Below are positions 22,908 through 61,909 of a stretch of 64,000 nucleotides of DNA, piece by piece. The notes beneath the pieces were generated by a model, which saw only the letters and a program-made list of their open reading frames with translations, had not been told where the DNA came from and did not search any database. Position numbers and translations under genes: made by a program. The DNA is from Promethearchaeota archaeon (GTDB lineage: Archaea > Asgardarchaeota > Lokiarchaeia > Sigyniarchaeales > SOKP01): assembly GCA_048940605.1 (NCBI GenBank), contig JBHLOJ010000005.1:8254-72253 (forward strand), in the 5' to 3' direction. The first letter of the stretch is position 1. Each line of letters starts with the position of its first letter.

Positions 22908-23423
22908 TCAAGATATATTTACTAGCCTAATAATGTCCAGCTTTTCTAATTTCTTAAGGGCATCATTAATATCATTTCTTTTTCTATTTAAAGTTCTTGA
23001 AATCTTCAATGGAGAGGTTTTCCCCGAGCATAATAATGCGATTTGAAATTCAAAATTATCAATCATTCCCATGGTCAATACTTTTTCTAATACATTTTTA
23101 GCAATAAGTAATTTTGGGAATACCTCTGCTATTTTCCCTCCTATAGTCAGATTCTCAATATCTGCATTTAACGTTTGGAACCTACTTTTTTCGGTTGTAG
23201 TTCGGAATACTTTAAGATCAGATTGGTGTTTTTTCCAAAAACGATTAGCAATTTTATGAATAACTTCTTTTATTTTTTCAGTATCATCATCCGCATCTGA
23301 AATTGAACAGAAAAGAATTCTAGATAAAGGATGATAATATATAAAAATTGTTGAATCTTCAGACTCAACTACTCTATTCATCTCATTTACTCGTCTTCCT
23401 TTTTTCATTGATTCTTGTATCAT
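22908..23423 (-). CDS. soluble longin-like + winged-helix protein (annotated part; the homologous frame continues upstream to 23579)
   Basis: Homologous to the cytoplasmic tail of the 1391-aa protein. The C-terminal wHTH-like segment is KTSPLKISRTLNRKRNDINDALKKLEKLDIIRLV. See the finding on the in-frame TAA. Confidence 0.55.
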   Translation of the reverse strand: MIQESMKKGRRVNEMNRVVESEDSTIFIYYHPLSRILFCSISDADDDTEKIKEVIHKIANRFWKKHQSDLKVFRTTTEKSRFQTLNADIENLTIGGKIAEVFPKLLIAKNVLEKVLTMGMIDNFEFQIALLCSGKTSPLKISRTLNRKRNDINDALKKLEKLDIIRLVNIS

Positions 23424-24984: not shown

Positions 24985-26451
24985 TTAAATATACGTATGA
25001 ATTAAATCTACAAGGTTTTTAGAAAAATCTGGTAAATTCTTTTCAATTTTTTCGATTTGGAGAGATTTTTCAATAAATAATAGCAAGTATAGATTATACT
25101 TATCAACCTGGATTTTTTTAAATATTATTTTTTTCGATTCATCTGCTATTCCTGAAGATACTAGAAAATCCTGTTGTAAAATCTTGAACTCTTTGAATGT
25201 TTTATACAGTTCTTGAAAATGAGGAGCAGAAATTTCAAATACTTTTTCAGAAATTTCATCTTTAGAAAAATTAGATAAAATAATTCCATTTTCATTTAAT
25301 AATAATATTGCATCTGAATTGGTTTTTTTAGCAAACTTTTTTAATTGATTTCTAAATAGTTCCCGATTAGGACTCAATTGTGAAAGCCCAAAGGAATATG
25401 CTGTTATTAGACTCCAGTGATCGAAAATACTAGTTTGGAAAATCTTAATTAAGAATCTATCAGAATTCTTCTCTATCTCATCAGCAATTATCTCTAAATT
25501 CTTAAAAATTTCTTTTGAGCCTTTTAAATCTGGATCAAATTTATTTAAGCAAATTACGATAGGAGGGAATTCCTCCAAATCAATTAAGGAGTCTATAATC
25601 TTTCTGAAAAGCTTTAAAGCTTCTCCAATCCTATCAACGTCTTGAATATCAATAAAGAAGTAAATTAGATCAACATTATATAGATAAACTTTACTTTGTT
25701 CAAGGAATCTCTCTCGGTATTGTTTTTGACCAGCTAAATCCCATAGTGTGATCACAGAATTTTGCTCTTCAAAAATATGTTCTTCAGATCTTTCGACTCC
25801 CCTAGTAGGTAAAGCTTTTATAATTTCTGAATACCTTCTTCTTATCCCTAATAGAAAACTTGATTTCCCTGCTTTATCTAATCCTGTTAATAGTACTTTG
25901 ATTTGACGCCTTACAGAGAATGGATCTTTTAGATCTTTTGTGAACTCAAACAATTCCTCTCTAATTTCATCCATAATTCTTTTATGATCGTCCAGTTCTT
26001 TATCTGTTTGTATCTGTGTAGCTGCTTTATCAATCATTATTCTCAAATATTTCATGTTTTCATAAAAAAAGACTCTATCATCCTCATTGATTAATATAGT
26101 AATAGTAGCGGCTAGAGCTTGACCACGTGCAGTTTCTTCAGGAATGAGAAAAAAATATGTTAAACCATTTAATTTCAAATCTGGAAATGGTAAGATACCG
26201 AAATAGTTAACTCCTACATCTGAACCTTGTGAGTCTTGATAAACTGAATCACCCATAAGCAAACTTATAGTTTTCATAGCAATTAAAAGTCCAGATTTCT
26301 CATCTAAATCAATGGGCCAAACAACTCTAGGTGTTGGACCTCTTTCATCGAATATACTTAAAACAATTGCTTTTATTAAGTCAGAGTTGTCAATCTCTGC
26401 ATTTTCTTTATTAACTTGTTTCCCATTCAATTTAGATTCGTTATTAGTCAA
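24985..26451 (-). CDS. three-domain GTPase: novel N-terminal longin-like domain + Rag/Gtr1-like G domain + C-terminal roadblock domain
   Basis: G1 GLDKAGKS, G3 WDLAGQ, G4 NKFD. The G5 region and junction QTSIFDHWSLITAYSFGLSQLSPNRELFRNQLKKFA resemble RagA [34 protein letters not shown]. About 130 aa follow with a roadblock-like alpha-beta-beta-alpha-beta-beta-alpha pattern. Confidence 0.7.
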   Translation of the reverse strand: MTNNESKLNGKQVNKENAEIDNSDLIKAIVLSIFDERGPTPRVVWPIDLDEKSGLLIAMKTISLLMGDSVYQDSQGSDVGVNYFGILPFPDLKLNGLTYFFLIPEETARGQALAATITILINEDDRVFFYENMKYLRIMIDKAATQIQTDKELDDHKRIMDEIREELFEFTKDLKDPFSVRRQIKVLLTGLDKAGKSSFLLGIRRRYSEIIKALPTRGVERSEEHIFEEQNSVITLWDLAGQKQYRERFLEQSKVYLYNVDLIYFFIDIQDVDRIGEALKLFRKIIDSLIDLEEFPPIVICLNKFDPDLKGSKEIFKNLEIIADEIEKNSDRFLIKIFQTSIFDHWSLITAYSFGLSQLSPNRELFRNQLKKFAKKTNSDAILLLNENGIILSNFSKDEISEKVFEISAPHFQELYKTFKEFKILQQDFLVSSGIADESKKIIFKKIQVDKYNLYLLLFIEKSLQIEKIEKNLPDFSKNLVDLIHTYI

Positions 26452-26616
26452 TTTATCCCCATAACTTTGGTCATAAAGTAATAATTTTGAAACTAACTTA
26501 TTCTCTTCTTTAGAGTATAATATGATAAAATCAATATATTACTTTAATATACTCAAAATAATAATTACTATTAAATAATTACTTTTATCTCCCAAAAATC
26601 TAGTTATTTTAATCTT

Positions 26617-28416: not shown

Positions 28417-28571
28417 GGTGGGTATATAAGAAGTTTGTTATATAGAATTAAAAAATATCTATTGAATTATTATATTCAAGAGATTTAAAAAACTCAATTA
28501 TTAATGGATTAAATAGAAGTCTTTTTTAGAATTTCAATACGCCCTATGGTTTATTTTATGAAGTTGATAAT

Positions 28572-29402
28572 GTGGAATATATGTTAAATTCATATTCTGA
28601 ATCTTCTCTTCATGATTTTTTTACTGAGATTCACAACATTTTGAGAGAAACAAATCCTAAAATAATTGAGATATGGTGTGAAATATCAAAAATTTCCTTT
28701 TTTAATAGATTGGAAAAGACAGAGTTTTATGAATTTATAGATAAATTTGATTTTATATCTCTCAGAAAGGGGAATTATATCTATTATATCGTAATTAATA
28801 AGATTTTATTTATTATTGATTGTATGAGCTTCCTGAAATATGACATCATCTATCTTTCTGAAATTTTAGACTATAATGGATTTGAGGTTTTAATAAAGGA
28901 GATTTTATTAAGAAATAATTATAAGGCAATAACTAATTTTAGATTTTCTGTGAACCCAAAGTTAAAGTTAAAATCAAACATTCATCATAAGAGATATGAG
29001 ATTGATGTTATTGGAATTTATTTAAAATATGTTATAATCATTGATGCAAAACAATGGAGGCGTAAAGATTCCTATGGATCACTAAATAGGGCAGCAAATC
29101 TACAATATAACCGTATTATGGCGTTAACACAAAATCCAGAAGCTTTTTTAAGACTTATTATTTCAATCTTAGGTGAAAGGTTCGATGTAGGGGGGCGTTT
29201 CTCTTTCATTCTTCTGCCTATAATGGTTACTCTCGAAGATAACAGCATAAAGTTAAATGAAAATCAGATACCACTGGTGTCAATACACGAATTGAATGCT
29301 TTTTTACAAGAGATCCCTAATAATCTAAATTATTTTAAAACTCTTCAAATTGATAAAGAAATTCTTAATAAGAATATAAATTATTTTTCTAAGCCCAAGT
29401 AG
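28572..29402 (+). CDS. hypothetical protein with a putative PD-(D/E)xK (Mrr-cat/NERD-like) nuclease core
   Basis: GFEVLIKEILLRNNY ... YEIDVIG ... VIIIDAKQW fits the FE..v..ll / D / (D/E)xK pattern of restriction-endonuclease-fold proteins. Confidence 0.4.
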   Translation: MEYMLNSYSESSLHDFFTEIHNILRETNPKIIEIWCEISKISFFNRLEKTEFYEFIDKFDFISLRKGNYIYYIVINKILFIIDCMSFLKYDIIYLSEILDYNGFEVLIKEILLRNNYKAITNFRFSVNPKLKLKSNIHHKRYEIDVIGIYLKYVIIIDAKQWRRKDSYGSLNRAANLQYNRIMALTQNPEAFLRLIISILGERFDVGGRFSFILLPIMVTLEDNSIKLNENQIPLVSIHELNAFLQEIPNNLNYFKTLQIDKEILNKNINYFSKPK

Positions 29403-30421
29403 TATTTTATTTGCTTTTTTATGAGATTAATAGCAATAGAAATAATCCCACTTTTCACTTTGGGATGAGAAAATAGAATTAATATCATATCTTTTAAATT
29501 TGGATTTTCTCTATCGATGGGTGCCAAATCTAATATACCTTCACTTCCTTTAACACTTATGGATTTAAGGTTTCCTGCACTTAATCCATGAATAATATCA
29601 GAACCAATCATTGAAAGATTCATTCCAATTGTACTAAACAATGATTCAGAAATCCTACTTGAAATAGCTGAAGCTAACATTGTTCCATCTGTTTTTATAA
29701 TCGCTGAAGCTTCAATTCGAGAATCAAGTGTAATTAATTCGTTTAAAATTTCATTCATGTTGGCGGGAGGTATTTTTTTCTCAGGCTCTATTTTAGCTTT
29801 TGATTCGGTTACATGTGGTTCTAATTTCTTTACCGAAATTTTTTTTGATAAGAAACTTAAAACCTCAGTCATATCTTTTTCTAGTCTTTTTTGTTTTAAT
29901 AAAGAAACCTCGGTTTCATCCGTCCTGGAAGGAATAGGTTCTAATGAAGGTTTTAGTTCTTCTTTCTCCTCTTCGAGCATTGATTGTTTAAGTTCTGAAA
30001 ATGCATCAGAAATGGGATCTTTTCTATTTGGTATTAGTGAACTCTGGAATGGTTTTGGTGGTATTTCTTGTAGTGCTTGGCTATTATCTCTTTCTATTTC
30101 TCGTTCAGTTTCGCTTAAACCATCATTAAAAGAATCGATTTCACCCATCTTGCTGTCTTCTGATGGGATTTCATCAAGATTTAATTCTATATCTTTTGGA
30201 ATTTCCTGTAATTTAACCTTTTCTTCCTTTTCATCTATAGTTTCAATTGATATCTCAATCCTTTCACGAGGAGATAATTCTTGATCTATTTTTTCCGATT
30301 TCTTTTTCTTGGATTTTTTTCTATCAGACTTGGAAGAGATTGGGAGTAAAGCCCCACATTTTCTACACGTACGGCTCACTGCTTCGTTATTTGTTGTACC
30401 ACAGTTCTGGCATATGATCAT
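29381..30421 (-). CDS. Zn-ribbon + disordered K/E-rich linker + Roadblock/LC7 (MglB-like) domain protein
   Basis: N-terminal CQNCG...CRKCG. C-terminal EASAIIKTDGTMLASAISS...LFSTIGMNLSMIGSDII...LKSISVKGSEGILDLAPI is a typical Roadblock/LC7 pattern. Strong SD GGAGGGGAG lies 8 nt upstream of the ATG. Confidence 0.75.
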   Translation of the reverse strand: MIICQNCGTTNNEAVSRTCRKCGALLPISSKSDRKKSKKKKSEKIDQELSPRERIEISIETIDEKEEKVKLQEIPKDIELNLDEIPSEDSKMGEIDSFNDGLSETEREIERDNSQALQEIPPKPFQSSLIPNRKDPISDAFSELKQSMLEEEKEELKPSLEPIPSRTDETEVSLLKQKRLEKDMTEVLSFLSKKISVKKLEPHVTESKAKIEPEKKIPPANMNEILNELITLDSRIEASAIIKTDGTMLASAISSRISESLFSTIGMNLSMIGSDIIHGLSAGNLKSISVKGSEGILDLAPIDRENPNLKDMILILFSHPKVKSGIISIAINLIKKQIKYYLGLEK

Positions 30422-30657
30422 AGCTTTATCTCCCCTCCATGAATTTAGATTACTAAAAAATTATAATAGGTATATATTCTCACAAAATTTAAGCATGAAT
30501 CTTTAATATATTTATAGTAAATTTATCAATTTTTTGTTTTTAGTTTTTACTGTATAATTTATTAATGAAAATTTGATTTTATTAATATTAGCTACAAAAA
30601 ATTAAGTGTTTAATATGTGCTTATAGAGTAGATTTAAGAGAAATATAGGAATTTTTC

Positions 30658-31635
30658 CTACTTATAAATAATCTCTTTAATTATATTTGCAAAAGTTTCA
30701 AAATCTTCTTTTTGAAAAACGGGATCATCCTTAAGTAACAATAAATAATAGGGAGTTGACTCTTTTTTCAATGTTATCTGTTTAAATATAAAATTTTTTC
30801 CAAATCTTTGGAGTAGCATCCTATCTTCGTATCTATTTTCTTGTACTCCCGTATATTGGAGTGAATCTGAAAGGGTAAGAAAATAAGGTGTCGAAGCGGT
30901 GAGTAAATGCTTAGTTTCTTCATTCTTATAATATGCACCAATCACTAGAGAGTTATCATCAATAACCACCACTCCTTCTGAGTCAATTTTCTTGGCAAAC
31001 TCGATTATTGTTTTTTCAATGAGTTCCGATTTTGGATATAAGCTTAGTAGAATTTCTGACATTGCCCTTATAATAGTTCCAAAATCATAAATGGAAGTCT
31101 CATAAAAATATATTTCCTTATAATCAGTAGCGCTTTTTACTTTCTCTTTTAAATCTATGATGAGATTTTCCATTTCATTTCGTGCTCCTCTTCGTAAGGC
31201 AGGATCATATTTATGAAGAAATACATATATGGGAGGTTCAATTTCTAATTCATAAAATTGTTTAATTACATCCTTAAAATAGCTAATAGCTTCAGGGATT
31301 CTGGGTTTATTTTGAACATCGATAACATAGATTGCAATTTCAGTACCCTCGAAAAATTTACCTGGATTCTTTAAATATGAGATTCTATAGCTAATTTGTC
31401 CACCTAAATCCCATTCTGAGATTTCTTTTCCTAGAAAATCGAAAACCCTTCTTTGGGCACCTCTAGTTGGAGATAATACAGCAATTTTTGAAAATTCTCT
31501 TTGAAGAGACAGTATAATGCTGGTCTTCCCCGCATCATCCAATCCAGTGAATAATAATTTTGAGGGCTCTGGTTTCTGTGGCTCTTCCTTTTTCAAATAC
31601 ATTATTGATTGTTTTAGATCTTTCTCCAAAGTCAA
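30658..31635 (-). CDS. Rag/Gtr1-family GTPase (G domain + C-terminal roadblock domain)
   Basis: 325 aa (human RagA is 313 aa). G1 GLDDAGKTS, G3 WDLGGQ. G4 is HKYD, which matches the Rag-type HKxD rather than NKxD. AIYVIDV (RagA LIYVFDV). ETSIYDFGTIIRAMSEILLSLYPKS (RagA [23 protein letters not shown]). Roadblock-like C-terminal 125 aa. Confidence 0.75.
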   Translation of the reverse strand: MTLEKDLKQSIMYLKKEEPQKPEPSKLLFTGLDDAGKTSIILSLQREFSKIAVLSPTRGAQRRVFDFLGKEISEWDLGGQISYRISYLKNPGKFFEGTEIAIYVIDVQNKPRIPEAISYFKDVIKQFYELEIEPPIYVFLHKYDPALRRGARNEMENLIIDLKEKVKSATDYKEIYFYETSIYDFGTIIRAMSEILLSLYPKSELIEKTIIEFAKKIDSEGVVVIDDNSLVIGAYYKNEETKHLLTASTPYFLTLSDSLQYTGVQENRYEDRMLLQRFGKNFIFKQITLKKESTPYYLLLLKDDPVFQKEDFETFANIIKEIIYK

Positions 31636-31725
31636 ATTTCACCTTTACACTTATAAAAAGCAATTTATTAATATATATTCTTTTGTAAGATAAAATATGA
31701 TCTTATCGTTTATTTAAATTACGGA

Positions 31726-33093
31726 TTATAAATTATTAGTAATAAATAATTTAAAATCTTCATATTCCTTAATTTCTATTGGATTAGGGAATTCCTTTCT
31801 ATTTTGAATGATCTCCAGTGCATTAGGTAGTTTTGGTTTAACTTTTATTAATGAGATAATTTCATCTGGAAATTTTGCGGGATCAGCAGTTTCAAAGGTA
31901 ATAGATTTAATTTGTTTATGAGAAGAATAATTTTTACGATAGGTTTGAAGAGCTGCCCATCCTACAGCACCATGTGGTTCGATAATTTTTTTATATCTTC
32001 TATAAAAATCTATTATTGTTTCTCTTGTTAAATTATCACTTATAGAATAAGAAATTATATTATCTCTTAGTTTTTCCATATCTGGACTTTTTAAAATAGA
32101 TCCATTTTCATCAATTTGACCCTGATATAAATCAAAGATACGGGCTAAATTGCTGGGGTTCCCAACATTCATAGCAGATGATAAGCAATTTCTTGATGGT
32201 TCAATTTTGTTGTAAATTCCAGAACTTAAAAATTTCGGAAACTCGTCATTCTCATTCACAGCCGAGACAAATTTACCTAGAGGCAATTCCATTCTAGATG
32301 CTATAATACCAGCTGTAAGATTGCCAAAATTACCTGAGGGTACTGAAAAAATGACTTTTTCATTTGGGTGTTGGATAATTCGTGAATAACTCCAAAAGTA
32401 ATAAATAGTTTGAGGAATAAGACGACCAATGTTAATAGAATTTGCAGATGACAAGTTAAAATCCTGTAAATCTTTATCTGCAAAAGCAGTTTTAATAATT
32501 CTTTGGCAATCATCAAATTTTCCATTTATGCCTATTGCTGTAACATTTTTTCCTAAGGTGGTCATTTGTTTTCTTTGAAGTAGACTAATTTCATCTTTCG
32601 GATAGAGAACAACAACTCTAATTCTTGACATTTCATGAAATGCCTGTGCAACTGCGCCTCCCGTATCACCTGAAGTTGCTGTTAATATTATTATTTCTTT
32701 ATCTTCAGTTGAGAGGAAATATTCCATTATTCTTGCTAAGACTCTTGCTCCAAAATCCTTGAAACTACAAGTAGGACCTTTACTTAGATAGCAAAGATAA
32801 TCAAATTTTTCAATTTTTTCCAATCCAATTTCAAAATTTAGAGCATTATGTATAATTTTTCTTAAAGACTGTTCTGGTATTTGCTCTTTAAGAATTTTAG
32901 ATAAGACCTTAAACGCAATTTCTTGTAAATTTAAATCTCCAAAACTAAATATCTCTTGATGTTCCAGAGTTGGAATTCTATTTAACATGTACAAACCTTT
33001 ATCTGAAGCTTGGCCTTTTAAGATGGCAGTCTTAAAGTCGACATCTGGAGCGCTGTAATTTGTTGAGTGAAATTTTATCATAACCGATCTCAT
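31726..33093 (-). CDS. thrC: threonine synthase
   Basis: PLP-lysine motif TCSFKDFGARV, TATSGDTGGAV and SGNFGN, with threonine synthase length and order. Confidence 0.85.
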   Translation of the reverse strand: MRSVMIKFHSTNYSAPDVDFKTAILKGQASDKGLYMLNRIPTLEHQEIFSFGDLNLQEIAFKVLSKILKEQIPEQSLRKIIHNALNFEIGLEKIEKFDYLCYLSKGPTCSFKDFGARVLARIMEYFLSTEDKEIIILTATSGDTGGAVAQAFHEMSRIRVVVLYPKDEISLLQRKQMTTLGKNVTAIGINGKFDDCQRIIKTAFADKDLQDFNLSSANSINIGRLIPQTIYYFWSYSRIIQHPNEKVIFSVPSGNFGNLTAGIIASRMELPLGKFVSAVNENDEFPKFLSSGIYNKIEPSRNCLSSAMNVGNPSNLARIFDLYQGQIDENGSILKSPDMEKLRDNIISYSISDNLTRETIIDFYRRYKKIIEPHGAVGWAALQTYRKNYSSHKQIKSITFETADPAKFPDEIISLIKVKPKLPNALEIIQNRKEFPNPIEIKEYEDFKLFITNNL

Positions 33094-33099
33094 TTATAT

Positions 33100-33642
33100 C
33101 TATTTTAATAATTCGTTGATTTTGTTGATTGCTTCTAGTGGAGAACTTACACCATATATCATGTCATTTCTTCTATTATCTAACTTTTGATTAGCCATCT
33201 TAGAAGACCAACCTTGAACAGATGATAAGGCAACTAAAGGTTTATCATATATCCAGGCAAAACAAATCTCAGATAAAGTTCCTGCTTTACCACTAATGGC
33301 TAAACATAAATCACCTGTAAGAACGACAACAATATTTCTAGCTTGGGAAAAGGGACAAGGTATTACAAGATCTACGTATTTATTAGCATAGTTTTTTTCT
33401 GTATGAGGAATAATACCGATAGTAAAACCGCCCTCTTCTTTAGCACCTTTACATATTGCTTCCATTACGCCAGAAAGTCCCCCACATGCCACAGCATAAT
33501 TATTTTTTGCGATTAATCTACCAATTTCTATAGTAATATTTTCTATCTCTTTATCAATTTCACTAGCTCCAATAACAGAAATTACCGCTTTAAACTTATT
33601 TTTAAAATTAAAACTCATAAAGTCATATCCCCATCTTGTCAA
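33100..33642 (-). CDS. TIGR00725/LOG-like Rossmann-fold nucleotide-binding protein
   Basis: VIGAS....., GGLSGVMEAICKGAKEEGGFTIGIIP, SGKAGTLSE. Confidence 0.65.
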   Translation of the reverse strand: MTRWGYDFMSFNFKNKFKAVISVIGASEIDKEIENITIEIGRLIAKNNYAVACGGLSGVMEAICKGAKEEGGFTIGIIPHTEKNYANKYVDLVIPCPFSQARNIVVVLTGDLCLAISGKAGTLSEICFAWIYDKPLVALSSVQGWSSKMANQKLDNRRNDMIYGVSSPLEAINKINELLK

Positions 33643-33653
33643 TTAAAAATCAA

Positions 33654-34685
33654 CTAAGTTGTATAACCTCTTTTTATTGATATAGCAATTAAATCGTTTA
33701 TAATAGCAGATGCTGCTTCAAAGCTTCCTGCACCTCTCCCCATTAAAAGTATTGGTCCTGCATATTTAGTTTCTAATTCCACTATATTAAAGGTTCCGTT
33801 AATATTAAGAGGAGAACTTTTATCAATTAAACGAGGTTCAACTGATAATTCACCATTTTCTGCTATTGCTAAATGTTTGATAACATAACCATCTGGTTTA
33901 ACTAATTCAATCGCGTGAGTAGTTACTTTCGAAATGCCTTCAACTTTAACGTCAGTAATAGTTTTTGACCATCCTAACAATTCATTTGCTAATATAACTA
34001 ACTTTCCAGCAGCATCATATCCATCGATATCTAAAGTAGGATCTGATTCAGCATATCCCAGTTCCTGCGCCTCTTTTAAAGCTAAAGGAAAATCAACGCC
34101 TTCTGCAGTCATTCTGCTTAAAATAAAGTTGGAAGTACCATTTAATATCGCTCTAATACTGAGAATTTCATTACCAATTAAATCTTCTTTAATCCCTAAT
34201 GAAGGAACACAACTTGCCACGGTTGCTTCAAATTTCACATAGCAATTATTTTGTTTAGCTAAATTCTTAATTTTATCATATTCCAGATAGAATGGTCCTT
34301 TATTTGAAGAAATTACATCAATACCATTATTGAGGGCTTCAATAATATGAGATAAACCAGGTTCTCCGGTTTTAGGGTTTGTAGGGGTAGTTTCTATGCA
34401 AATGGATATATCTAATTTAGAAATTAAATCAATAGCTTTTACATTTTTCCTCCAATAAGGCAAATTTCTAAAATTGTCACCGACATCTAGTACTTCTTTT
34501 AGATCAATTCCATTTTCATTAATAAGTGCTCCATCTATTTCAAAAATGGAATTCACTATAACGTTTAAATTAAATTTTTGTTCGAGAAACTGATTCTTTT
34601 CATATAATAATTGAATTAAACTAGTTCCAACTATACCTTTTCCAATTAGACAAATATTGACGTTCATCATTTTTATTAAATTCAA
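33654..34685 (-). CDS. hom: homoserine dehydrogenase
   Basis: N-terminal Rossmann motif LIGKGIVGT. SSNKGP, FEATVASCVP, ILNGTSNFILSRM, AQELGYAESDPTLDIDGYDAAGKL. Confidence 0.85.
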   Translation of the reverse strand: MNLIKMMNVNICLIGKGIVGTSLIQLLYEKNQFLEQKFNLNVIVNSIFEIDGALINENGIDLKEVLDVGDNFRNLPYWRKNVKAIDLISKLDISICIETTPTNPKTGEPGLSHIIEALNNGIDVISSNKGPFYLEYDKIKNLAKQNNCYVKFEATVASCVPSLGIKEDLIGNEILSIRAILNGTSNFILSRMTAEGVDFPLALKEAQELGYAESDPTLDIDGYDAAGKLVILANELLGWSKTITDVKVEGISKVTTHAIELVKPDGYVIKHLAIAENGELSVEPRLIDKSSPLNINGTFNIVELETKYAGPILLMGRGAGSFEAASAIINDLIAISIKRGYTT

Positions 34686-34765
34686 TTTAATATTATTCTG
34701 GATTTAGAGTAATTTTTGTCGGCAATTCGTCGTTTAATTTATTAAATCTAATAATCATTCTTTCA

Positions 34766-35257
34766 TCAGCTAGTAATTAAGAATAACTTTTTCTCCTCAC
34801 AAATTTTTCTTAGTTCATTATTAAGCTCCTTCTTATTCATATCTTCTGGGAATTCGATTTTTAGCTTAACATTACTCACTTCTTCTAATTCTGTAAACTT
34901 AGCTTGTAATTCTAACACATTTATATTTTTTGAAGCTAATCTTTTTATTGTATCCATCACATCTGTGTCAAATACGTGACCTGTTAAAATAATGGTAATT
35001 AGCTTCTTTTCAATCTCGTAATTTATATTCTCAATTTGAATATTTTTTTCTTTTAACTCTCTTTTTATATTTTTTATACTAATTTCTTGAATTTCCTCAT
35101 TCAATTCGAAAGTTACATTTACAGGGATTAAATTATTGATTTTTCTATCATGGAAGTGAAGTATCCCATAAATGTTTCCACCATTTTTAGAAATAGGTTT
35201 AATTAACTCAATTAAACTTCCAGGAGTATCTGGCAACTTTACTTCCAAATTTATCAT
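34766..35257 (-). CDS. ACT-domain protein (probable amino-acid-binding regulatory subunit)
   Basis: LEVKLPDTPGSLIELIKPISKNGGNI is an ACT-type beta-alpha start. A second ACT-like half follows. The gene lies directly upstream of hom. Confidence 0.55.
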   Translation of the reverse strand: MINLEVKLPDTPGSLIELIKPISKNGGNIYGILHFHDRKINNLIPVNVTFELNEEIQEISIKNIKRELKEKNIQIENINYEIEKKLITIILTGHVFDTDVMDTIKRLASKNINVLELQAKFTELEEVSNVKLKIEFPEDMNKKELNNELRKICEEKKLFLITS

Positions 35258-35352
35258 GATCTTTCTCCTCTATTTGAATATTCAAATCGGAACTTAAGAT
35301 TTTTGGATTATCGACTTGTGTACAATTCTATTAATAATTTTCAATATAAATT

Positions 35353-36318
35353 TTAAAATTTTATTACATCAATAGACTCTTCCTTTCCGTTATTTATTCT
35401 CAGAAGATTTGGATCTTTAATAATGTTACCTATAATATTAGTATTTAACCCATATTCTTGAAATGTCTCTGCTATTTCTTTACAGTTTGCTTTAGGAGCA
35501 GTTAATATAAATGAAGTTGTTAAATACATTTTAATGTAGGTTTCTAAATCGTAACCATCATCTAATAATTTTCGAGGAATTTTAATTTTAGAAATATTCA
35601 CGTCAGCACCGACTTTCGAATAATTAATCATTTGACACAAAGTACCAAAAATTCCTCCATTGGATACATCTTTGGACGCATTAACTATATGTTTTTGCGC
35701 AATTACGTTCATAGATTTTCTCTTTCTCAATATTTCTTCGGAATTTTTAAATGTAGTGGTATCATAATATAATTTACTTGCCTTACCTGGTTTTCCATCA
35801 AAATCAACAGCTAATATAATATTATCTCCTACTTGTGCATTACCCGCAGATATATAATCTTCCTTTTTAATTTCACCTATCATTGTAGAACTTAGCTCAT
35901 AATATTTTCCATTTACATTAGTATGCCCTCTAATAATCGGAACTTTAAATTTCTGGGAACCTTCACATATTCCTTCAAGCAAATCATTACAGATATCTGG
36001 TTCTTTTACAGAAATAATTATACTTGCAGCTAATGGAATCCCGCCACATGCGTAGATGTCATCTACACTAACTAAGATTGAACTAAAACCTGCTCCGAAA
36101 GGAAAATTTTCTATGAAGGTGGTTTTTATTCTGTCAGTAGTAACCAGTATATATTTATCATCATTTTTGATAGTAGCAGCATCTTCCCCTATATCTGAAT
36201 AAATTCTTGCACTTTTAAACGATTTTTTATCAATAAATTGAACAATTGGACTTATTTGTTTCTTTTCTTGAATGTATTGATTGTTCTTAATACTATTAGC
36301 TATCTTTTTAAGTGTCAT
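35353..36318 (-). CDS. AIR synthase-related (PurM/ThiL/HypE superfamily) protein
   Basis: IGEDAATI...ILVTTDRI N-domain pattern and the DVSNGGIFGTL C-domain pattern. Confidence 0.6.
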   Translation of the reverse strand: MTLKKIANSIKNNQYIQEKKQISPIVQFIDKKSFKSARIYSDIGEDAATIKNDDKYILVTTDRIKTTFIENFPFGAGFSSILVSVDDIYACGGIPLAASIIISVKEPDICNDLLEGICEGSQKFKVPIIRGHTNVNGKYYELSSTMIGEIKKEDYISAGNAQVGDNIILAVDFDGKPGKASKLYYDTTTFKNSEEILRKRKSMNVIAQKHIVNASKDVSNGGIFGTLCQMINYSKVGADVNISKIKIPRKLLDDGYDLETYIKMYLTTSFILTAPKANCKEIAETFQEYGLNTNIIGNIIKDPNLLRINNGKEESIDVIKF

Positions 36319-36454
36319 CTATGAATTTAATATATAGATATTAATAATTATTTTTGCTTATTCTATAGTTAATGAATGATAAAGTTATTAATAGTTAATC
36401 TTGCTTAATTACTTTAAGAAATTTAAAATTTAACACAAAAAAAAATTTTAAACA

Positions 36455-37960
36455 ATGGAGGAATTATTTGAAACCTCAATTATAAAGGGGTTAATTTTCA
36501 GTTCATATGGAGACTTAGGTCCGCAACCAATTTATGTATGGCCTAAATATTATACTGAAAAAGAATTAGAAAAGATTAAAGAGGAAAGGCAAAGACAAAA
36601 CCTTCTTACATTAACAACCAGAGATGTAACCCAAATCTCTATAAAAAACCTTAGTTTATTTATTAGCGATAAGGTATTTACACCAGATATTGATACTCAA
36701 AATTTAACGTATTTCGCCATATTACCTTATCCAGATTTCAGTGTAACCTCTTTAACATATTTTCATTATATTAATATTAATTCTTCTAACTCTCAGATCC
36801 CTACTGCTTTTTCAATATTAGTTGAAGAAAATAGTAGAAGTTTTTTATATAATAATATAAACAGAATTAAACCTATTGTGATTGAATTTTTCAGATCATT
36901 TGATAATAATTTGATAGATAATTATCCACCTCAAGAGAAAATAGAGCCTGCTTTTTATGAATTATTCAAAAAGATAGTTGAAATTGAGAGAAGTCCATCA
37001 ACACCTATTACAACCCATAGAAAAATGAAGATTCTATTTGCTGGATTAGATGACAGTGGAAAAACTAGTTTTTTACTTTCTGTAGATCGCAAATATAGTA
37101 AGTTAATAGGTTTAAAACCAACAACAGGGGCAAGTATCAAATCAATTGAGGCTTTGGGAGCAACAATATTTTTATGGGATCTGGGAGGTCAACTTACTTT
37201 TAGAAAGAAATATATTACTAAAGCAGAAATTTATTTATATGAAGCAGATTTGTTGTTTTATTTTATTGATATCAGAAACAAAATTAGGTTTGAAGAAAGC
37301 ATTGAATATCTTTTAGATTTGAAAAAAGTATTGAAGCAGTTTAATCAAAATACTCCAATCATTTACATTTTATCAAAGGGAGATTCGGATATAATTAAAA
37401 CTGGAGAAATTATAGAAAATATCGAAATTGTGAAAAATAGATTAAATGAAATTTCACCAGAAGAATCCCCTGAGATATATGTGACTAGTATCTTTCAAAT
37501 ATTTACCATATTGAGAGCATTCTCATCTGGAATCTCAAAATTGAGCCCTAATAGAAATTTAATCAATCATAATCTTAGAAACTTCTCGATAAAAACAAGT
37601 TCATATCTTACACTGTTGTTAAGTGTAGATGGTTTAGTTTTGGCAGATTTTTATTCCCCTAAAGCGAGTAAATTAACAAAGATAACTGAATCAGAAGAAA
37701 TAATTAACGTGTTTGAGGTAACAGCACCGCAATTCGCCATGTTATTTAAAATATTCTCTAGATTTAAAGCGTTGCAACAAGAAGAAGCGGTATTTAAAGT
37801 TGCAGACTCAGTGATACTTTTCAAAAAGATTAAAGTAGCAGAGAACGACATGTTCATCTTATTTCTGATTGATAGTGAAAAAAGAAAAGAAAAAATAAAT
37901 ACTAAATTAACCACTTTCCTCGATCAAACAAATGATCTACTCTTAAGATATATATCTTAA
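36455..37960 (+). CDS. three-domain GTPase, paralog of 24985..26451 (N-terminal longin-like domain + Rag-like G domain + roadblock domain)
   Basis: G1 GLDDSGKTS, G3 WDLGGQ, degenerate G4 SKGD. VTSIFQIFTILRAFSSGISKLSPNRNLINHNLRNFS junction. The N-terminal domain aligns with ORFs at 24985, 50014 and 51220. Confidence 0.7.
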   Translation: MEELFETSIIKGLIFSSYGDLGPQPIYVWPKYYTEKELEKIKEERQRQNLLTLTTRDVTQISIKNLSLFISDKVFTPDIDTQNLTYFAILPYPDFSVTSLTYFHYININSSNSQIPTAFSILVEENSRSFLYNNINRIKPIVIEFFRSFDNNLIDNYPPQEKIEPAFYELFKKIVEIERSPSTPITTHRKMKILFAGLDDSGKTSFLLSVDRKYSKLIGLKPTTGASIKSIEALGATIFLWDLGGQLTFRKKYITKAEIYLYEADLLFYFIDIRNKIRFEESIEYLLDLKKVLKQFNQNTPIIYILSKGDSDIIKTGEIIENIEIVKNRLNEISPEESPEIYVTSIFQIFTILRAFSSGISKLSPNRNLINHNLRNFSIKTSSYLTLLLSVDGLVLADFYSPKASKLTKITESEEIINVFEVTAPQFAMLFKIFSRFKALQQEEAVFKVADSVILFKKIKVAENDMFILFLIDSEKRKEKINTKLTTFLDQTNDLLLRYIS

Positions 37961-50013: not shown

Positions 50014-51054
50014 ATGGAAAGACAAATAATTAGGGGCATTATATACAATACTCTAGATGAGCAGATTGGTCCTAATCCTAAAGTATACCTACCAGAGGAT
50101 TTTTCTCAATTAGATTTACTCCATATTAGTGTCAAAACTTTTGCGGTTCTTACAGGTGAGGGAGGACTTATACCTGAATCCTTGGTCGTATTACCATTTC
50201 CATCCTTACAATTAAAAGGATTGACTAAATATATGCAATGGGAAGATCCTGATAAACGAGGTGGCGTTGGTCATGCCAATATCACAGTTTTGTTTCAAGA
50301 AATGGATGATGTAATTTTTTATAAATATATAAAGGAAATTTCAGTTCCTTTTAATGAAATTGTTCAAAATATTACGTTCTTAGAAAAATCTAATGCAAAT
50401 GAAGACCAATTTTTAAATGAATTAATAAACCTTGAAAATGGAATTACTGAACTTTTAGAGTATCTGAGAAATCAAGAATTAAAAGAATCTAAAATCGAAG
50501 CTTTAGATCAAGCCATAGATCGAAGTATGATTGATTTTCAATTTAAGATAATTGTAGTTGGGGATCCGACCGTTGGAAAAACAAGTTTAGTCTTAAGATA
50601 TACGAATAATGCATTTAGGAGATCATATGTTTCTACGATGGGAGTTCATGTTTCTAATAAAATTTTTAGAGCTGATGATTCTACAATTATTCAACTTGTT
50701 TTATGGGATGTGGGAGGTCAAGAAAGATTTAAAATTATGAGAAAACAGTTTTATCAAGGATCCGATGCGGTATTTTTAGTTTTTGACTTAACAAATCCTG
50801 AAACATTCAGTAATATCCCCGTTTGGTTTTCGGACATTAAAAAACAAATGGAATTACGTGGCGAAGATCTTATAGGTTATGTCATTGGTAATAAAAAAGA
50901 TTTGGAGAATGAAAAGAAAATTACTAGTGAGGATGCTCAAAGATTAGCCCAAAAGTTTAATTTAGAGTATCTTGAAACGTCAGCTTTATCGGGAGAAAAT
51001 GTAGATTATGCCTTCACAACTCTCGCTAAAATACTTTACAAGTCTAGAATGTAA
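50014..51054 (+). CDS. two-domain GTPase: novel N-terminal longin-like domain + Rab/Ras-like G domain
   Basis: G1 GDPTVGKTS, switch I YVSTMG, G3 WDVGGQERF, G4 GNKKDL, G5 ETSALSG. The N-terminal 125 aa align with the N-domains of ORFs at 24985 and 36455. Confidence 0.75.
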   Translation: MERQIIRGIIYNTLDEQIGPNPKVYLPEDFSQLDLLHISVKTFAVLTGEGGLIPESLVVLPFPSLQLKGLTKYMQWEDPDKRGGVGHANITVLFQEMDDVIFYKYIKEISVPFNEIVQNITFLEKSNANEDQFLNELINLENGITELLEYLRNQELKESKIEALDQAIDRSMIDFQFKIIVVGDPTVGKTSLVLRYTNNAFRRSYVSTMGVHVSNKIFRADDSTIIQLVLWDVGGQERFKIMRKQFYQGSDAVFLVFDLTNPETFSNIPVWFSDIKKQMELRGEDLIGYVIGNKKDLENEKKITSEDAQRLAQKFNLEYLETSALSGENVDYAFTTLAKILYKSRM

Positions 51055-51069
51055 AAAACACTAAATTTC

Positions 51070-51093
51070 TTCGTGAAAGACTTCTTTCACGAA
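51070..51093 (+). terminator. hairpin between the tandem GTPase paralogs
   Basis: TTCGTGAAAG-actt-CTTTCACGAA, a perfect 10-bp stem 16 nt after the stop, followed by an A/T-rich tract. Confidence 0.4.
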
Positions 51094-51219
51094 AAATATA
51101 AAAATTGTGATTATACTTATAAGGATATATAGGATTCTGTATTCTATTATTTATATTCTTTAAGATAAACTATTAAACTCCTAAAAAACCATTGTGATAT
51201 ATTCACAAGTTCATTAACT

Positions 51220-52245
51220 ATGTCTCAAGAGATTATCAAAGCAATCATATATACTTCGCTTGATGAAAACCTCGGTCCGAATCCTGTTTTATGGATTCCA
51301 CTTGATTTACCAGAAAAGATTCGTATGGGTGTAAGTATTAAAACTATTACTATGCTTACCACTGATCAAGGAATAGTTCCTAATTCATTAGTAATAATGC
51401 CTTTCCCTGCCTTCAAATTAAAAGGAATTATAAAATATATTGAGAGAGAAGATGACTCTCGACGAGGAGGTGTAGCATTATCATCAATAGCCCTGTTGTT
51501 TAATGAGACGGATGATCCTATTTTTTATAAGTATATGGAATATCTTGAGCCCATATTTTCTGAATGTGCTAACAACCTTATTGTTTTAGAAAATGGGGAA
51601 GCAAAAAGTGATGAAATCTTTATTGAGATACATCATTTCCGTCAAAAATTAACTGAATTATTAGATGATTTATATCAAAAAGAAATAACATCTTCTGAAA
51701 TAGAAGCTTTTCCTGAGGAGGAAATTAAAGAAGAATTACTAGAGTATAATTTCAAATTGATCGTATGTGGTGATCCAGGAGTAGGAAAAACTAGTACAAT
51801 TTTAAGATTCACAGATAACGCTTTTATGCGAACTTATGTGCCTACCCTTGGTGTAAGCATTTCCGAAAGACTAGTATCATTAGGAGATAAACACATCAAT
51901 CTAATTTTGTGGGATATCGCAGGACAATCAAAATTTGAAATAATGAGAAGACACTTTTATAAAGGTACCGACGCCGTGATTCTAATATTTGATCTGACAA
52001 ACCGTAAATCATTTGAAAGTGTTTCTAATTGGATTAATGATATAAGAAAATATGAGCAGGAAATAATAGGGCTAATTTTAGGAAATAAGGAAGATCTAAT
52101 AGGTGAGCGAAAAATTCCTACTGAAGAAGCCTTAGAGATTGCTAAAACTTTTAATTTTGAATATGCTGAAACATCTGCATTAACAGGTAAAAATGTAGAG
52201 CAAAGTTTTTATAAAGTAGCAGAAACTTTATTTAAATCAAAATAA
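51220..52245 (+). CDS. two-domain GTPase, tandem paralog of 50014..51054
   Basis: G1 GDPGVGKTS, G3 WDIAGQSKF, G4 GNKEDL, G5 ETSALTG. Same N-terminal domain (IIKAIIYTSLDENLGPNPVLWIP, MPFPAFKLKG, LLFNETDDPIFYKYMEYL). Confidence 0.75.
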   Translation: MSQEIIKAIIYTSLDENLGPNPVLWIPLDLPEKIRMGVSIKTITMLTTDQGIVPNSLVIMPFPAFKLKGIIKYIEREDDSRRGGVALSSIALLFNETDDPIFYKYMEYLEPIFSECANNLIVLENGEAKSDEIFIEIHHFRQKLTELLDDLYQKEITSSEIEAFPEEEIKEELLEYNFKLIVCGDPGVGKTSTILRFTDNAFMRTYVPTLGVSISERLVSLGDKHINLILWDIAGQSKFEIMRRHFYKGTDAVILIFDLTNRKSFESVSNWINDIRKYEQEIIGLILGNKEDLIGERKIPTEEALEIAKTFNFEYAETSALTGKNVEQSFYKVAETLFKSK

Positions 52246-52989: not shown

Positions 52990-53559
52990 CTATTTTGAAT
53001 CCTTTAATTCATTAAGGGTCGCTTTAGATTCATGGTATAATTTTTTGATTATAGCTTGAAAGGCATCATATACACGTTCGCCTGTTTTCGCTGAGGTTAA
53101 ATAATAACCAAGAAGGTTTTTTTTCTTTACTAATCTTTCAATTTTAGCATTATCTATATTATCCTTATTAACAAGATCAACTTTATTAGCGAAAATTATA
53201 ATAGGTATGGCTCCACAAAATTGCTTTAAATCGTCATACCAATGTATAACATTCTTAAGACTTTCCTTACCAAGCTTATTTTCTTCAAGTGAATAAACAA
53301 TTATTCCTGCTCTACTGTCCTTATAAAAAGATGGACGTAAGAAATGAAACTCATCCTGACCAGCGATATCCCAAAAAAATAACAAGCATTGATCATTTTC
53401 TATTTCCTCTACATATTTCGAAAATTGGGCTCCTAATGTTTTTATATATTCTTTTTGGAAACTACCTTTAGTAAATTTTTGAATTAAACTAGTTTTTCCC
53501 ACCATACCATCTCCAACGACAGTAACTTTAAACTTAAATATATCTTGAGGTTTATTCAT
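52990..53559 (-). CDS. stand-alone Rab/Ras-like small GTPase
   Basis: G1 GDGMVGKTS, switch I YIKTLG, G3 WDIAGQDEF, G4 ANKVDL, G5 TSAKTG. 189 aa with no C-terminal Cys. Confidence 0.8.
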   Translation of the reverse strand: MNKPQDIFKFKVTVVGDGMVGKTSLIQKFTKGSFQKEYIKTLGAQFSKYVEEIENDQCLLFFWDIAGQDEFHFLRPSFYKDSRAGIIVYSLEENKLGKESLKNVIHWYDDLKQFCGAIPIIIFANKVDLVNKDNIDNAKIERLVKKKNLLGYYLTSAKTGERVYDAFQAIIKKLYHESKATLNELKDSK

Positions 53560-60454: not shown

Positions 60455-61909
60455 TTATTTTAATTTTAATTCGGGATGTTCTTTTAATTCTGTTCTCATT
60501 TTTTTTAAAGTATCACCATGCAATTCATAAGATTTGAATAAAAGAATTGAACCAACAAGAGCTAAAGATGGAAATACAAACACTAGAAGTTTTATGCCAA
60601 TCTCTCTTAGAACAGGGTTATCAACAATCGGTGCGTATTCACTCCAACCAGTTCCAGAAAATATTATATAAATAGTTGTAATTCCAAGTATCATTGAAAA
60701 TCGGTGTATAAATGCATTTACACCATAATAACTAGCAGCTCTCCTCACCCCAAATTTAAGGGCATCCTGATCAATTACATCACCATGAATTAAATCGATA
60801 AAAAATAGTACAGCAGACAATCCAAATCCTATTGATGCAAAAACTACAAATGATAATATTCTACTTATATCATTATTTGATAAAAGTATCAAAGGAAATA
60901 ATGTAATTATCCAAATTCCCATACCTATCATTAATCCCTTACGTGTGCCTAGTTTTTTTCGAATCCATGCTTGAAGGGGCATAAAAAAGGCAGCAAAAAG
61001 AAGTGCTATCGCTAAAGTTACTCCAATTAATAAAGATCCTTGATCCCTTCCAAGCACATAAACTGCATAGAGAGGGAATACTGTTAACAACACATTAAAA
61101 CAATACCAAATTAACATATTTCCAAATGTAAATTTAATAAAGGTTCTATTTGAAAATGTTATTTTTAATGATTTAAAGAAGCCTGGCCTCTTTTCAAAAT
61201 CACTCAGTTGTTCTTCTTTTTCTTTTACACCAAAAAATATAAATAATACTGCCATAATTAAAACTATAGCACCCAAAATTATGCCTGATATAATATACTC
61301 AGATCGTATTTTATCAACTTGGGTAGCATATCCTAGTGGGTCAATTTTAGGATCTATCGTTGGAACTAAAGGCGTAATAATAATTGTGGGAATAAAAGAA
61401 GCCAATATTACTGCAATCATAGTAAAGCTTTTTATAAATATATTTACACTCCCTCTCTGCTTTTCGGTAGGAAACATTTCGGGAAAGATGGCATTTGTAT
61501 TTACTGAAAACATCGTATAAAATAGCTCAAATGTAAAGATTATTCCTAGAAAATACCAGAATTCAAAATCAAACATTTTATTGCTTAATGGGTTTCTCAA
61601 GCTTACTGTAAAAAGAAATATCATAATTAATGATAGCGGAATAAAGGAAATTATTAAATAAAATTTGCGTTTTCCTAATTTACCTTTCTGTTTTGTTTTT
61701 TCGCTTAATGTACCTAAAAGAGGATCATTAAACATATTCCAAATGCCCCATAAAACAAATCCGATCCACATTTCAAGCATACTAAGATGTACAACGGCAA
61801 AGTAATATGTAAAAACATAGATAGTAAACGCTTGATATGTTAACTGATCGGGAAAAGCATTTGTGCCAAATAATACTCTTTCCTTCAAAGATATTTTTCT
61901 TTCACTCAT
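60455..61909 (-). CDS. MFS transporter, glycoside-pentoside-hexuronide (GPH/MelB-like) family
   Basis: 12 hydrophobic segments. N-terminal YGTNAFPDQL, D-P-L-L-G-x-L-S-E and GKRKFYL resemble GPH signatures. Confidence 0.65.
   Translation of the reverse strand: MSERKISLKERVLFGTNAFPDQLTYQAFTIYVFTYYFAVVHLSMLEMWIGFVLWGIWNMFNDPLLGTLSEKTKQKGKLGKRKFYLIISFIPLSLIMIFLFTVSLRNPLSNKMFDFEFWYFLGIIFTFELFYTMFSVNTNAIFPEMFPTEKQRGSVNIFIKSFTMIAVILASFIPTIIITPLVPTIDPKIDPLGYATQVDKIRSEYIISGIILGAIVLIMAVLFIFFGVKEKEEQLSDFEKRPGFFKSLKITFSNRTFIKFTFGNMLIWYCFNVLLTVFPLYAVYVLGRDQGSLLIGVTLAIALLFAAFFMPLQAWIRKKLGTRKGLMIGMGIWIITLFPLILLSNNDISRILSFVVFASIGFGLSAVLFFIDLIHGDVIDQDALKFGVRRAASYYGVNAFIHRFSMILGITTIYIIFSGTGWSEYAPIVDNPVLREIGIKLLVFVFPSLALVGSILLFKSYELHGDTLKKMRTELKEHPELKLK

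Follow-up and report, generated by a model that had tools for sequence, protein, structure and literature searches.

Which protein family supplies the N-terminal half of two neighbouring small GTPases in an Asgard archaeon, and what might it do for the G domain that it precedes? The two genes, called RabA and RabB here, lie on 64,000 nucleotides of Promethearchaeota archaeon DNA (assembly GCA_048940605.1, contig JBHLOJ010000005.1, positions 8,254 to 72,253), hereafter the window, to which all positions below refer unless another locus is named. The window is archaeal, with a GC content of about 30%, and its nearest genomic relatives are metagenome-assembled genomes (MAGs) of Promethearchaeia (Lokiarchaeia). 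We show below that the N-terminal domain is a longin domain of the folliculin/NPRL2/SMCR8 class, the class to which the longins of several eukaryotic GTPase-activating proteins (GAPs) belong, and that the same domain is joined to Rag-like GTPases elsewhere in the window.

RabA and RabB share their N-terminal domain with two Rag-like proteins

An earlier note on this DNA, made by a model from the letters and their open reading frames (ORFs), had described two adjoining same-strand paralogs that match at about half of their positions, each with an N-terminal region and a linker before a C-terminal Rab/Ras-type G domain. The two ORFs (Table 1) are 44% identical, with 69% positives, over their full length (BLASTP E value, 6e-111). 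RabA is laid out as an N-terminal domain of about 160 aa that ends in a long helix, then a short, flexible linker and a Ras/Rab-type G domain, and RabB is built alike. The Pfam Ras family covers aa 178 to 341 (E = 3e-47), with weaker overlapping matches to Roc and Arf. The G motifs quoted in the note are present in the pair as GDPTVGKTS/GDPGVGKTS, WDVGGQ/WDIAGQ, GNKKDL/GNKEDL and ETSALSG/ETSALTG. When the window proteins were scanned directly with Pfam and NCBIfam, aa 1 to 170 matched no family. Overall, we regard the identity and architecture of RabA and RabB as very well established.

It had also been proposed that the N-terminal domain recurs in Rag-like proteins, giving four copies. The Rag-like motifs quoted at that time (LIKAIVLSIFDE, LPFPDLKLNGLT and ITILINEDDRVFFYENM) all come from one protein, RagN1. 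Its N-terminal region is about 31% identical to that of RabA (E = 1e-16 to 2e-16) and also about 31% identical to that of RabB (E = 1e-20 to 3e-21); these values were computed with composition-based statistics, and the ranges reflect how the domains were trimmed. A hidden Markov model (HMM) of the RabA, RabB and RagN1 regions recovered one further copy among all window ORFs, in RagN2 (E = 1.4e-12). Neither Rag2, a third Rag-like protein, nor the plain GTPase at 52990 to 53559 matched this longin HMM. Could the similarity be compositional, or arise by chance in a genome of 30% GC? The genome is AT-rich, and RabA and RagN2 gave no pairwise BLAST match to each other. The pairwise E values, the HMM match of RagN2, the 286 representatives found among 1.84 billion proteins (see below) and the confident fold prediction nevertheless exclude such an origin, to which we assign next to no probability.

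The longins and the G domains are related in different ways. The RagN1 longin scored 60 to 72 bits against those of RabA and RabB and 64 bits against that of RagN2. The RabA and RabB G domains, in contrast, scored about 100 bits against the plain GTPase next to them and 28 to 36 bits against the Rag-type G domains, and the three Rag-type G domains scored 114 to 146 bits among themselves. Because longin scores are similar across the two classes whereas G-domain scores lie far apart, the comparison supports domain shuffling, in which members of one longin family were joined to G domains of two families with separate histories, as the earlier note had argued.

The N-terminal domain is a longin of the folliculin/NPRL2/SMCR8 class

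The structure of RabA aa 1 to 155 was predicted with AlphaFold2 (AF2) from a 36-sequence alignment of the family, A2, and its secondary structure was assigned with DSSP. The model is confident, with a predicted local distance difference test score (pLDDT) of 91 and a predicted template modelling score (pTM) of 0.86. Its elements follow the order β-β-α-β-β-β-α-α (β1, 6 to 15; β2, 19 to 26; α1, 32 to 46; β3, 58 to 62; β4, 67 to 77; β5, 85 to 95; α2, 96 to 125; α3, 130 to 162, of which 130 to 154 is helical in the model). There is no helix at the N terminus. This order is the one that defines longins, which lack an N-terminal helix, unlike roadblock domains (PMC10933270), and a roadblock identity was ruled out on this ground.

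The top PDB match in a Foldseek search was 8yqg, the crystal structure of a longin from a Lokiarchaeota "Roadblock-Longin" protein (E = 7e-7; template modelling [TM] score, 0.77). GATOR1 chains of NPRL2 size (E = 2e-5) and yeast Npr2 (8adl_S; E = 1e-4) came next; the presence of NPRL2 in the GATOR1 entries and the identity of 8adl_S as Npr2 were checked against the PDB. Further matches were to DENND10, the Lst4 longin 4zy8 (TM score, 0.51 to 0.57) and chains of the FLCN-FNIP2 and C9orf72-SMCR8 complexes.

Sequence comparisons pointed in the same direction. The A2 profile matched 8yqg_A among PDB sequences (E = 2.7e-4) and no other. In scans made member by member, the sole recurrent Pfam family was Folliculin (PF11704), which was matched by 11 of 36 domains at E ≤ 5 (best, 2e-4) and by 7 of 104 full-length proteins at E ≤ 1e-3 (best, 4e-6); a C9orf72-like Pfam family was touched by one member. 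Member P0081, for instance, scored 21.2 bits, below the Folliculin gathering cut-off of 23.3. Profile-profile comparison with a 14-sequence NPRL2 family profile aligned 129 to 136 columns at E values of 7e-4 to 2e-3; the NPRL2 homologs retrieved for that profile were mostly metazoan, and the E value stayed modest. Comparisons by hhalign of the N-domain profile with individual FLCN or NPRL2 sequences yielded alignments that were short and statistically weak. After the longin come a helical linker and a Ras or Rag G domain, and there is no C-terminal DENN or NPRL-specific domain.

Taken together, the N-terminal domain is a longin of the folliculin/NPRL2/SMCR8 ("GAP-longin") class, which, judging from the Pfam scans, is too divergent to be annotated in the proteins of the window itself. 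The earlier note had called it an accessory module coupled to GTPases; the coupling stood, and the membership of the folliculin/NPRL2 class had gone unrecognised. That note had also considered that the domain might prove to be a defined Pfam family of unrelated function. The family to which it is related, Folliculin, has a related function, and longins in general are well known as regulators of GTPases.

A GP motif and a loop arginine are conserved in the family

A GP motif at the β1-β2 turn and an arginine finger are specific to the catalytic GAP longins FLCN, NPRL2, SMCR8 and C9orf72; the GP motif is absent from TRAPP, adaptin and DENND longins, and both features occur together in a class of Asgard longins (PMC12290439). 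In the window, the GP motif is present in all four copies, and across A2 its Gly is invariant and its Pro is found in at least 90% of the sequences. G19-P20 of RabA is in register with G20-P21 of NPRL2. The β4-β5 loop reads RG in RabA, RabB and RagN1, and RabA R82 is a candidate arginine finger. In RagN2, as in each of the 13 RagN2-like sequences of A2, one residue is deleted at this place and the Arg is missing.

The same two motifs were then counted in 198 domains that cover both. The Arg was kept in 59 of 66 Ras-fused domains. Among the 60 Rag-fused copies, 59 had GP, 30 had RG and 28 had the deletion without Arg. The loop Arg was also present in 46 of 52 proteins with the RabA/RabB architecture. 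Full-length Rag-type representatives measured 462 to 486 aa when they carried the Arg (n = 9) and 479 to 682 aa when they did not (n = 14). Since Arg-less relatives (the RagN2-like sequences and 8yqg) belong to the same family, the loop Arg is not needed for the fold.

For comparison with the eukaryotic proteins, the human NPRL2 and FLCN sequences were verified against the PDB, with NPRL2 R78 in KKYS-R-NALLFN and FLCN R164 in DSLA-R-GFQRWYSIITIMMD. Both hhalign and HMMER align R82-G83 of RabA with R164-G165 of FLCN, with the same spacing from RG to β5 and to the acidic residue that ends it. The equivalence of these arginines is consistent in position and topology, short of proof by sequence statistics.

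The G domains are Rab-like and keep their active site

The best PDB sequence matches of the RabA G domain were Rab26, Rab8A, Rab4B and Rab1B, with E values of 1e-33 to 1e-36. Foldseek with the full-length RabA model found Rab8/Rab1b (TM score of about 0.88 to 0.90, normalised to the target); its PDB matches were to Rab G domains only, with no chain spanning both domains. By best match the G domain would be called Rab-like; in published phylogenies such Asgard proteins go by the name "RasL" and do not group specifically with Rabs (bioRxiv 10.1101/2024.02.28.582541). The C termini read ILYKSRM in RabA and TLFKSK in RabB, and among the 52 proteins of longin plus Ras-type architecture (alignment A4) only 1 has a Cys in its last six residues. 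True, prenylated Rabs were ruled out because the prenylation Cys is missing.

In A4, the P-loop Lys, DxxG and NKxD are present in 52 of 52 proteins, the switch I Thr in 49 and the switch II Gln in 47; the SA(K/L) columns are likewise invariant or almost so. At the level of these motifs the active site is intact and compatible with an arginine-finger GAP. The P-loops lie at 50560 to 50583 in RabA and at 51763 to 51786 in RabB. Where Ras has G12, 39 of the 52 have a Pro (GDPxVGKT), and the longin-less neighbour reads GDGMVGKT; this Pro may have evolved in step with the fused longin and mark such proteins. The AF2 model of full-length RabA (pLDDT, 92; pTM, 0.82) has low confidence only in the linker, aa 161 to 172, and around switch I. 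It suggests a defined arrangement of longin and G domain, with probably a fixed packing of the two.

The longin family prefers small-GTPase partners

Searching an index of 5.8 billion proteins with a profile built on the four copies yielded 80. All named matches were from Asgard archaea: Promethearchaeota/Lokiarchaeia, Hermodarchaeota, Odinarchaeota and Thorarchaeota. Further named members of the family came from Helarchaeota, Sigynarchaeota and Hodarchaeota. There was no named match to the longin family outside Asgard, cluster representatives carrying no names. The precomputed Pfam labels of the 80 proteins were of the Arf/Gtr1_RagA or Ras/Roc classes.

When 1.84 billion cluster representatives were searched exhaustively with HMMER, 286 matched at E ≤ 1e-3, of which 186 were at E ≤ 1e-10; the partner counts refer to the best 150 of the 286. 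A small-GTPase (Arf/Ras-superfamily) domain was present in 81 of the 104 that were at least 230 aa long. Ras (63) and Gtr1_RagA (49) were the partners in overlapping counts, and other partners were rare (a TrmB-type helix-turn-helix [HTH] domain in 2 and TIR in 1). The longin family thus strongly prefers small-GTPase partners, in line with the earlier description of a generic GTPase-coupled module.

A catalogue of stand-alone copies and fusion partners had been suggested as a check, and the members do fall into length classes. Proteins of 336 to 364 aa combine a longin with a Ras-type G domain, like RabA and RabB, and those of 460 to 680 aa combine a longin with a Rag-type G domain and a C-terminal region. 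Those of 150 to 190 aa are stand-alone or fragmentary longins. In a class of about 280 aa (P0167, P0175, P0185, P0202, P0211 and P0221), the longin, which has ARG, comes after some 105 aa that form an unassigned N-terminal domain; these proteins probably have the roadblock-longin form to which 8yqg belongs. One Sigynarchaeota protein has its longin at the C terminus (aa 245 to 407), and P0157 (409 aa) is among the other architectures. Full-length proteins of 340 to 680 aa came from the exhaustive search of representatives; word-indexed homolog searches gave only proteins of up to about 312 aa, many labelled partial, and their lengths are not biological. A solitary Helarchaeota member rules out that tandem pairing is a feature of the whole family.

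RabA and RabB are separate transcription units

The hairpin that had been noticed between the paralogs has a perfect stem and a 4-nt loop (TTCGTGAAAG-actt-CTTTCACGAA), with a free energy (ΔG) of -12.7 kcal/mol and a z score of -4.0; 1 of 200 shuffled sequences was as stable. It is kept after the orthologous stop codon in a related Promethearchaeia MAG (locus L001) and is likely a 3'-end or terminator element. A TATA-like 12-mer, ATTATTTATATT, precedes each gene. It occurs three times in the window against 0.34 expected, the third copy being at 61236 to 61247 on the minus strand, and is probably a duplicated TATA-box/promoter element, which implies that the paralogs are transcribed separately.

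A scan of genome contigs found L001 as the one related locus, and wider synteny was taken from three exact-protein look-ups. L001, whose RabA ortholog is 88% identical, keeps the order membrane protein, RabA, RabB, nitroreductase. Between its RabA and RabB orthologs lies a 265-aa leucine-rich-repeat gene on the opposite strand (L001 positions 2194 to 2991, minus), which is absent from the window. Because of the hairpin after RabA, the 12-mer before each gene and the gene between the L001 orthologs, RabA and RabB are separate transcription units, derived from a lineage-specific duplication, and a RabA-RabB operon was rejected. What the earlier note had observed was confirmed in every particular.

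Rag-like proteins of the window

RagN1, Rag2 and RagN2 lie within 13 kb (24985 to 37960) among unrelated genes (NRDD, AIRS and MtrH). In RagN1, Pfam Gtr1_RagA (PF04670) covers aa 185 to 397 (E = 1e-23; profile positions 1 to 214 of 232). Its PDB matches are 8yl2_A, 8zla_A (LokiRagM), Gtr1 and RagA, with alignments reaching RagN1 aa 424 to 434; that to RagA extends to RagA residue 240 to 263 at RagN1 residue 424. RagN1 and RagN2 are 36% identical in the G domain and 40% identical in the C-terminal region, in which Pfam found no roadblock family in either protein. The RagN2 longin has the GP motif, no Arg, and an insertion before α1.

The order of the three Rag-like genes is kept, at 69 to 82% protein identity, in the complete 2.27-Mb Promethearchaeota chromosome CP070805.1 (locus L002, 1362 to 10849), where the RagN2 ortholog carries both Arf and Gtr1_RagA matches. 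The RagN1 ortholog there (78% identical) ends at about residue 288, at a synteny breakpoint, and has thereby lost the latter half of its G domain together with its C-terminal region.

Other ORFs of the window were also inspected. The ORF at 29381 to 30421 (minus), 237 nt downstream of Rag2 on the same strand, encodes 346 aa with an N-terminal zinc ribbon (sub-threshold in Pfam), an acidic low-complexity middle and a C-terminal part of about 120 aa that by eye resembles a roadblock/LC7 domain; this C-terminal part had no Pfam match. The gene is conserved as a neighbour in L002 (56% identity). The ORF at 14076 to 18251 (plus; 1391 aa) has a signal/transmembrane-like N terminus, a long Asn/Ser/Thr-rich, presumably extracellular region and a late transmembrane segment. 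Its cytoplasmic tail of about 240 aa begins with a stretch (RNIQAIVIVHKLSGIPLYSRSY...) that by eye resembles a roadblock or longin domain; neither the whole protein nor the tail had a Pfam match. The 171-aa ORF at 22908 to 23423 (minus) has a C-terminal TrmB-type HTH at 22.5 bits, below the cut-off of 25.6, after an unassigned N-domain of about 120 aa; the protein did not match the longin HMM.

Table 1. Features of the window described in the text
Feature	Position	Strand	Evidence
RagN1, 488 aa: longin aa 20-176 (Arg-containing, ARG), Gtr1/RagA-type G domain, C-terminal region	24985..26451	-	
Rag2, 325 aa: Rag-like GTPase without longin	30658..31635	-	Pfam Gtr1_RagA aa 26-242, E 7e-27
RagN2, 501 aa: longin aa 1-178, Rag-type G domain, C-terminal region	36455..37960	+	
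TATA-like 12-mer, 77 nt upstream of RabA start codon	49926..49937	+	
RabA, 346 aa: longin and Ras/Rab-type GTPase fusion	50014..51054	+	ORF; Pfam Ras; full-length AF2 model (pLDDT 92, pTM 0.82)
RabA longin domain, aa 1-162	50014..50499	+	AF2 (pLDDT 91, pTM 0.86); Foldseek; PDB sequence match
RabA GP motif, G19-P20, β1-β2 turn	50068..50073	+	Conservation; alignment with NPRL2 G20-P21
RabA R82-G83, β4-β5 loop, candidate arginine finger	50257..50262	+	Conservation; alignment with FLCN and NPRL2
RabA G domain, aa 173-346, without C-terminal Cys	50530..51051	+	PDB sequence matches; Foldseek; G1-G5 motifs
Perfect 10-bp hairpin, 17 nt after RabA stop codon	51071..51094	+	ΔG; shuffles; conservation
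Second copy of the 12-mer, 63 nt upstream of RabB start codon	51146..51157	+	
RabB, 341 aa: RabA paralog of the same longin and Ras/Rab-type architecture	51220..52245	+	
RabB GP motif	51274..51279	+	
RabB R82-G83	51463..51468	+	
RabB G domain	from ~51739	+	
Plain Ras/Rab-type GTPase, 189 aa, closest relative of the RabA/RabB G domains in the window	52990..53559	-	Pfam Ras, E 4e-39

Possible roles of the fused longin

The explanation that we consider best overall is that a GAP-class longin has been fused to a soluble G domain as a built-in regulator, and we give it an even chance of being right. The narrower claim that the longin is an arginine-finger GAP for the very G domain to which it is attached falls a little short of even. 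If it holds, the longin would dimerise through the edge of its β-sheet, as longin domains do, and R82 would insert as an arginine finger beside the switch II Gln. GTP hydrolysis would then be sped up in cis or across the longin dimer, giving a self-timing switch. R82 would be the analogue of FLCN R164 on RagC, NPRL2 R78 on RagA and SMCR8 R147 on Arf1 (PMC12290439, PMC8213707, PMC9473554). In the Rag type, the Arg-containing RagN1 would pair with the Arg-less RagN2, as in FLCN/FNIP, NPRL2/NPRL3 and SMCR8/C9orf72. The truncated RagN1 ortholog of L002 speaks against such a pair being strictly obligatory, unless a further paralog can stand in.

Several points weigh against a built-in GAP. Eukaryotic GAP longins work in trans, as heterodimers with DENN or other domains that are absent here, and where a GAP stays attached to its substrate at all times, the switch would be useful only with some further level of control. 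The window proteins match neither Pfam Folliculin (PF11704) nor NPR2 (PF06218). The alignment of R82 with FLCN R164 has a non-significant E value of 0.37 against the single FLCN sequence, and against the NPRL2 profile R82 falls one residue off R78 when the GP motifs are in register. Finally, most longin and roadblock platforms are guanine nucleotide exchange factors or scaffolds, not GAPs (PMC10933270).

This last fact also speaks for a second explanation, in which the longin is a non-catalytic platform that dimerises or offers an exchange or stabilising surface, as in Mon1-Ccz1, TRAPP, DENN and Ragulator, with the Arg and the GP motif serving in binding. A platform would suit the closest solved structure, 8yqg, which is dimeric and without the Arg, as well as the half of the Rag-fused domains that lack it and the appearance of the DENN-family protein DENND10 among the fold matches. 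It fits less well with a GP motif that is specific to GAP longins and missing from TRAPP, adaptin and DENND longins (PMC12290439), with the retention of the Arg in 59 of 66 Ras-fused copies, and with the catalytic subunit NPRL2/Npr2 as the best eukaryotic fold match; we think a platform unlikely, at somewhat under one chance in three. We put lower still, as rather improbable, a longin that localises the protein, binds effectors or is autoinhibitory, recruiting an anchor-less GTPase to a membrane or partner or masking its switch regions, like the SNARE longins and SRX-SRβ. The near-complete lack of C-terminal Cys and of a prenylation motif would call for some other targeting device, the pTM of the full-length model suggests a longin packed on the G domain, and in a few cases members of the family are joined to TrmB-type HTH or TIR domains. 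Such a role, however, leaves unexplained both the pairing of GP and Arg that is specific to GAP longins and the nearly even division of the Rag-fused class into members with and without the Arg.

Returning to the built-in GAP, one may further imagine that these single-chain modules of a GTPase and its own GAP preserve the ancestral state of the eukaryotic Rag GAPs, and that eukaryotes later split the longin pair off. We consider this extension speculative and improbable, at about one chance in five. RagN1 and RagN2 would form a heterodimer whose N-terminal longins make an asymmetric pair with a single arginine finger, like FLCN-FNIP and NPRL2-NPRL3; the pair, once split off, would have become a separate, regulatable eukaryotic GAP complex, and RabA and RabB would be the same invention on a Rab-like switch. 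In that case GAP longins would have worked on Ras-type GTPases, and not only on those of the Rag/Arf type, already before eukaryogenesis.

Longin-based GAPs are involved in nutrient signalling, Birt-Hogg-Dubé syndrome and amyotrophic lateral sclerosis/frontotemporal dementia. Should the longin prove catalytic, proteins as small and soluble as these would offer a manageable way to study how such GAPs arose and how they work. If it is not, the fusions still show a longin-GTPase coupling older than eukaryotes, a point already accepted. The findings may not surprise specialists, yet they offer a direct and testable handle on the origin of longin-based GAPs.

Comparison with known systems

The fusion of a longin to a GTPase is itself already known in Asgard archaea, from 2016 and 2024, and GP/Arg Asgard longins from 2025. 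Klinger et al. (2016), as summarised in PMC4917890, described 5 of 41 Lokiarchaeum longins as fused to "Arf-like" GTPases. Rag GTPases to which a longin is fused were noted by Liu et al., who also described NPRL2-like longins as abundant and joined to many different partners (bioRxiv 10.1101/2020.10.19.343400). Tran et al. (2024) distinguished "L-G" and "L-G-RB" architectures among 74 small GTPases of MK-D1, using AF2 models (PMC10933270). In the literature searched, we did not find stated an explicit link between GAP-type longins and those fused to GTPases, a large subfamily with Ras/Rab-type partners, or the roughly even split of the Rag-fused class by the Arg. The proteins in these reports come from the same group of organisms (Lokiarchaeia/Promethearchaeia) and likewise have an N-terminal longin before a small GTPase, with a further C-terminal domain in the Rag type. 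The reports name Arf-like or Rag-like partners for the longin and a roadblock for Ras-like GTPases, whereas here the longin has a Ras/Rab-type partner, in at least 50 representative clusters. They also give no assignment to the GP/Arg GAP-longin class, which is made here.

The closest known structure, 8yqg, is the best match in both fold and sequence; it has the GP motif, like the window longin, and is dimeric. It differs in being fused to a roadblock and not to a GTPase, and in having EPEK in place of xRG, without the loop Arg. Eukaryotic Rabs, with Rab26, Rab8, Rab4 and Rab1 as the best G-domain matches, have intact G1 to G5 motifs in common with RabA and RabB, which differ from them in having an N-terminal longin and no C-terminal prenylation cysteines.

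FLCN-FNIP, acting on RagC/D, GATOR1 NPRL2-NPRL3, acting on RagA/B, and C9orf72-SMCR8, acting on Arf1 and Rab8a/11a, have the longin fold and the GP motif in common with the window family, along with an Arg in the β4-β5 loop whose equivalence is probable by position (PMC12290439). In both settings there are Arg-containing and Arg-less paralogs, and the eukaryotic clients are Rag and Ras-superfamily GTPases; the split of the Rag-fused longins mirrors the asymmetric eukaryotic GAP heterodimers. Each eukaryotic longin is on a polypeptide of its own, acts in trans and comes with a DENN or another C-terminal domain, whereas the window longin is fused to its GTPase and has no DENN. Sequence similarity between the two is marginal, and a GAP role here is proposed by analogy. 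The "Folliculin/SMCR8 longin domain-containing" proteins of PMC12290439 (2025), proposed as relatives of the eukaryotic GAP longins, have an arginine finger and, like the window longin with its candidate finger, the GP motif. That study treats the identity of their Asgard GTPases as an open question, and its main text is silent on fusions. In the window family the partner is in the same polypeptide, and the fusions may serve as a "Rosetta-stone" answer to the partner question, with Rag-type and Ras/Rab-type G domains on about 80% of the longer members.

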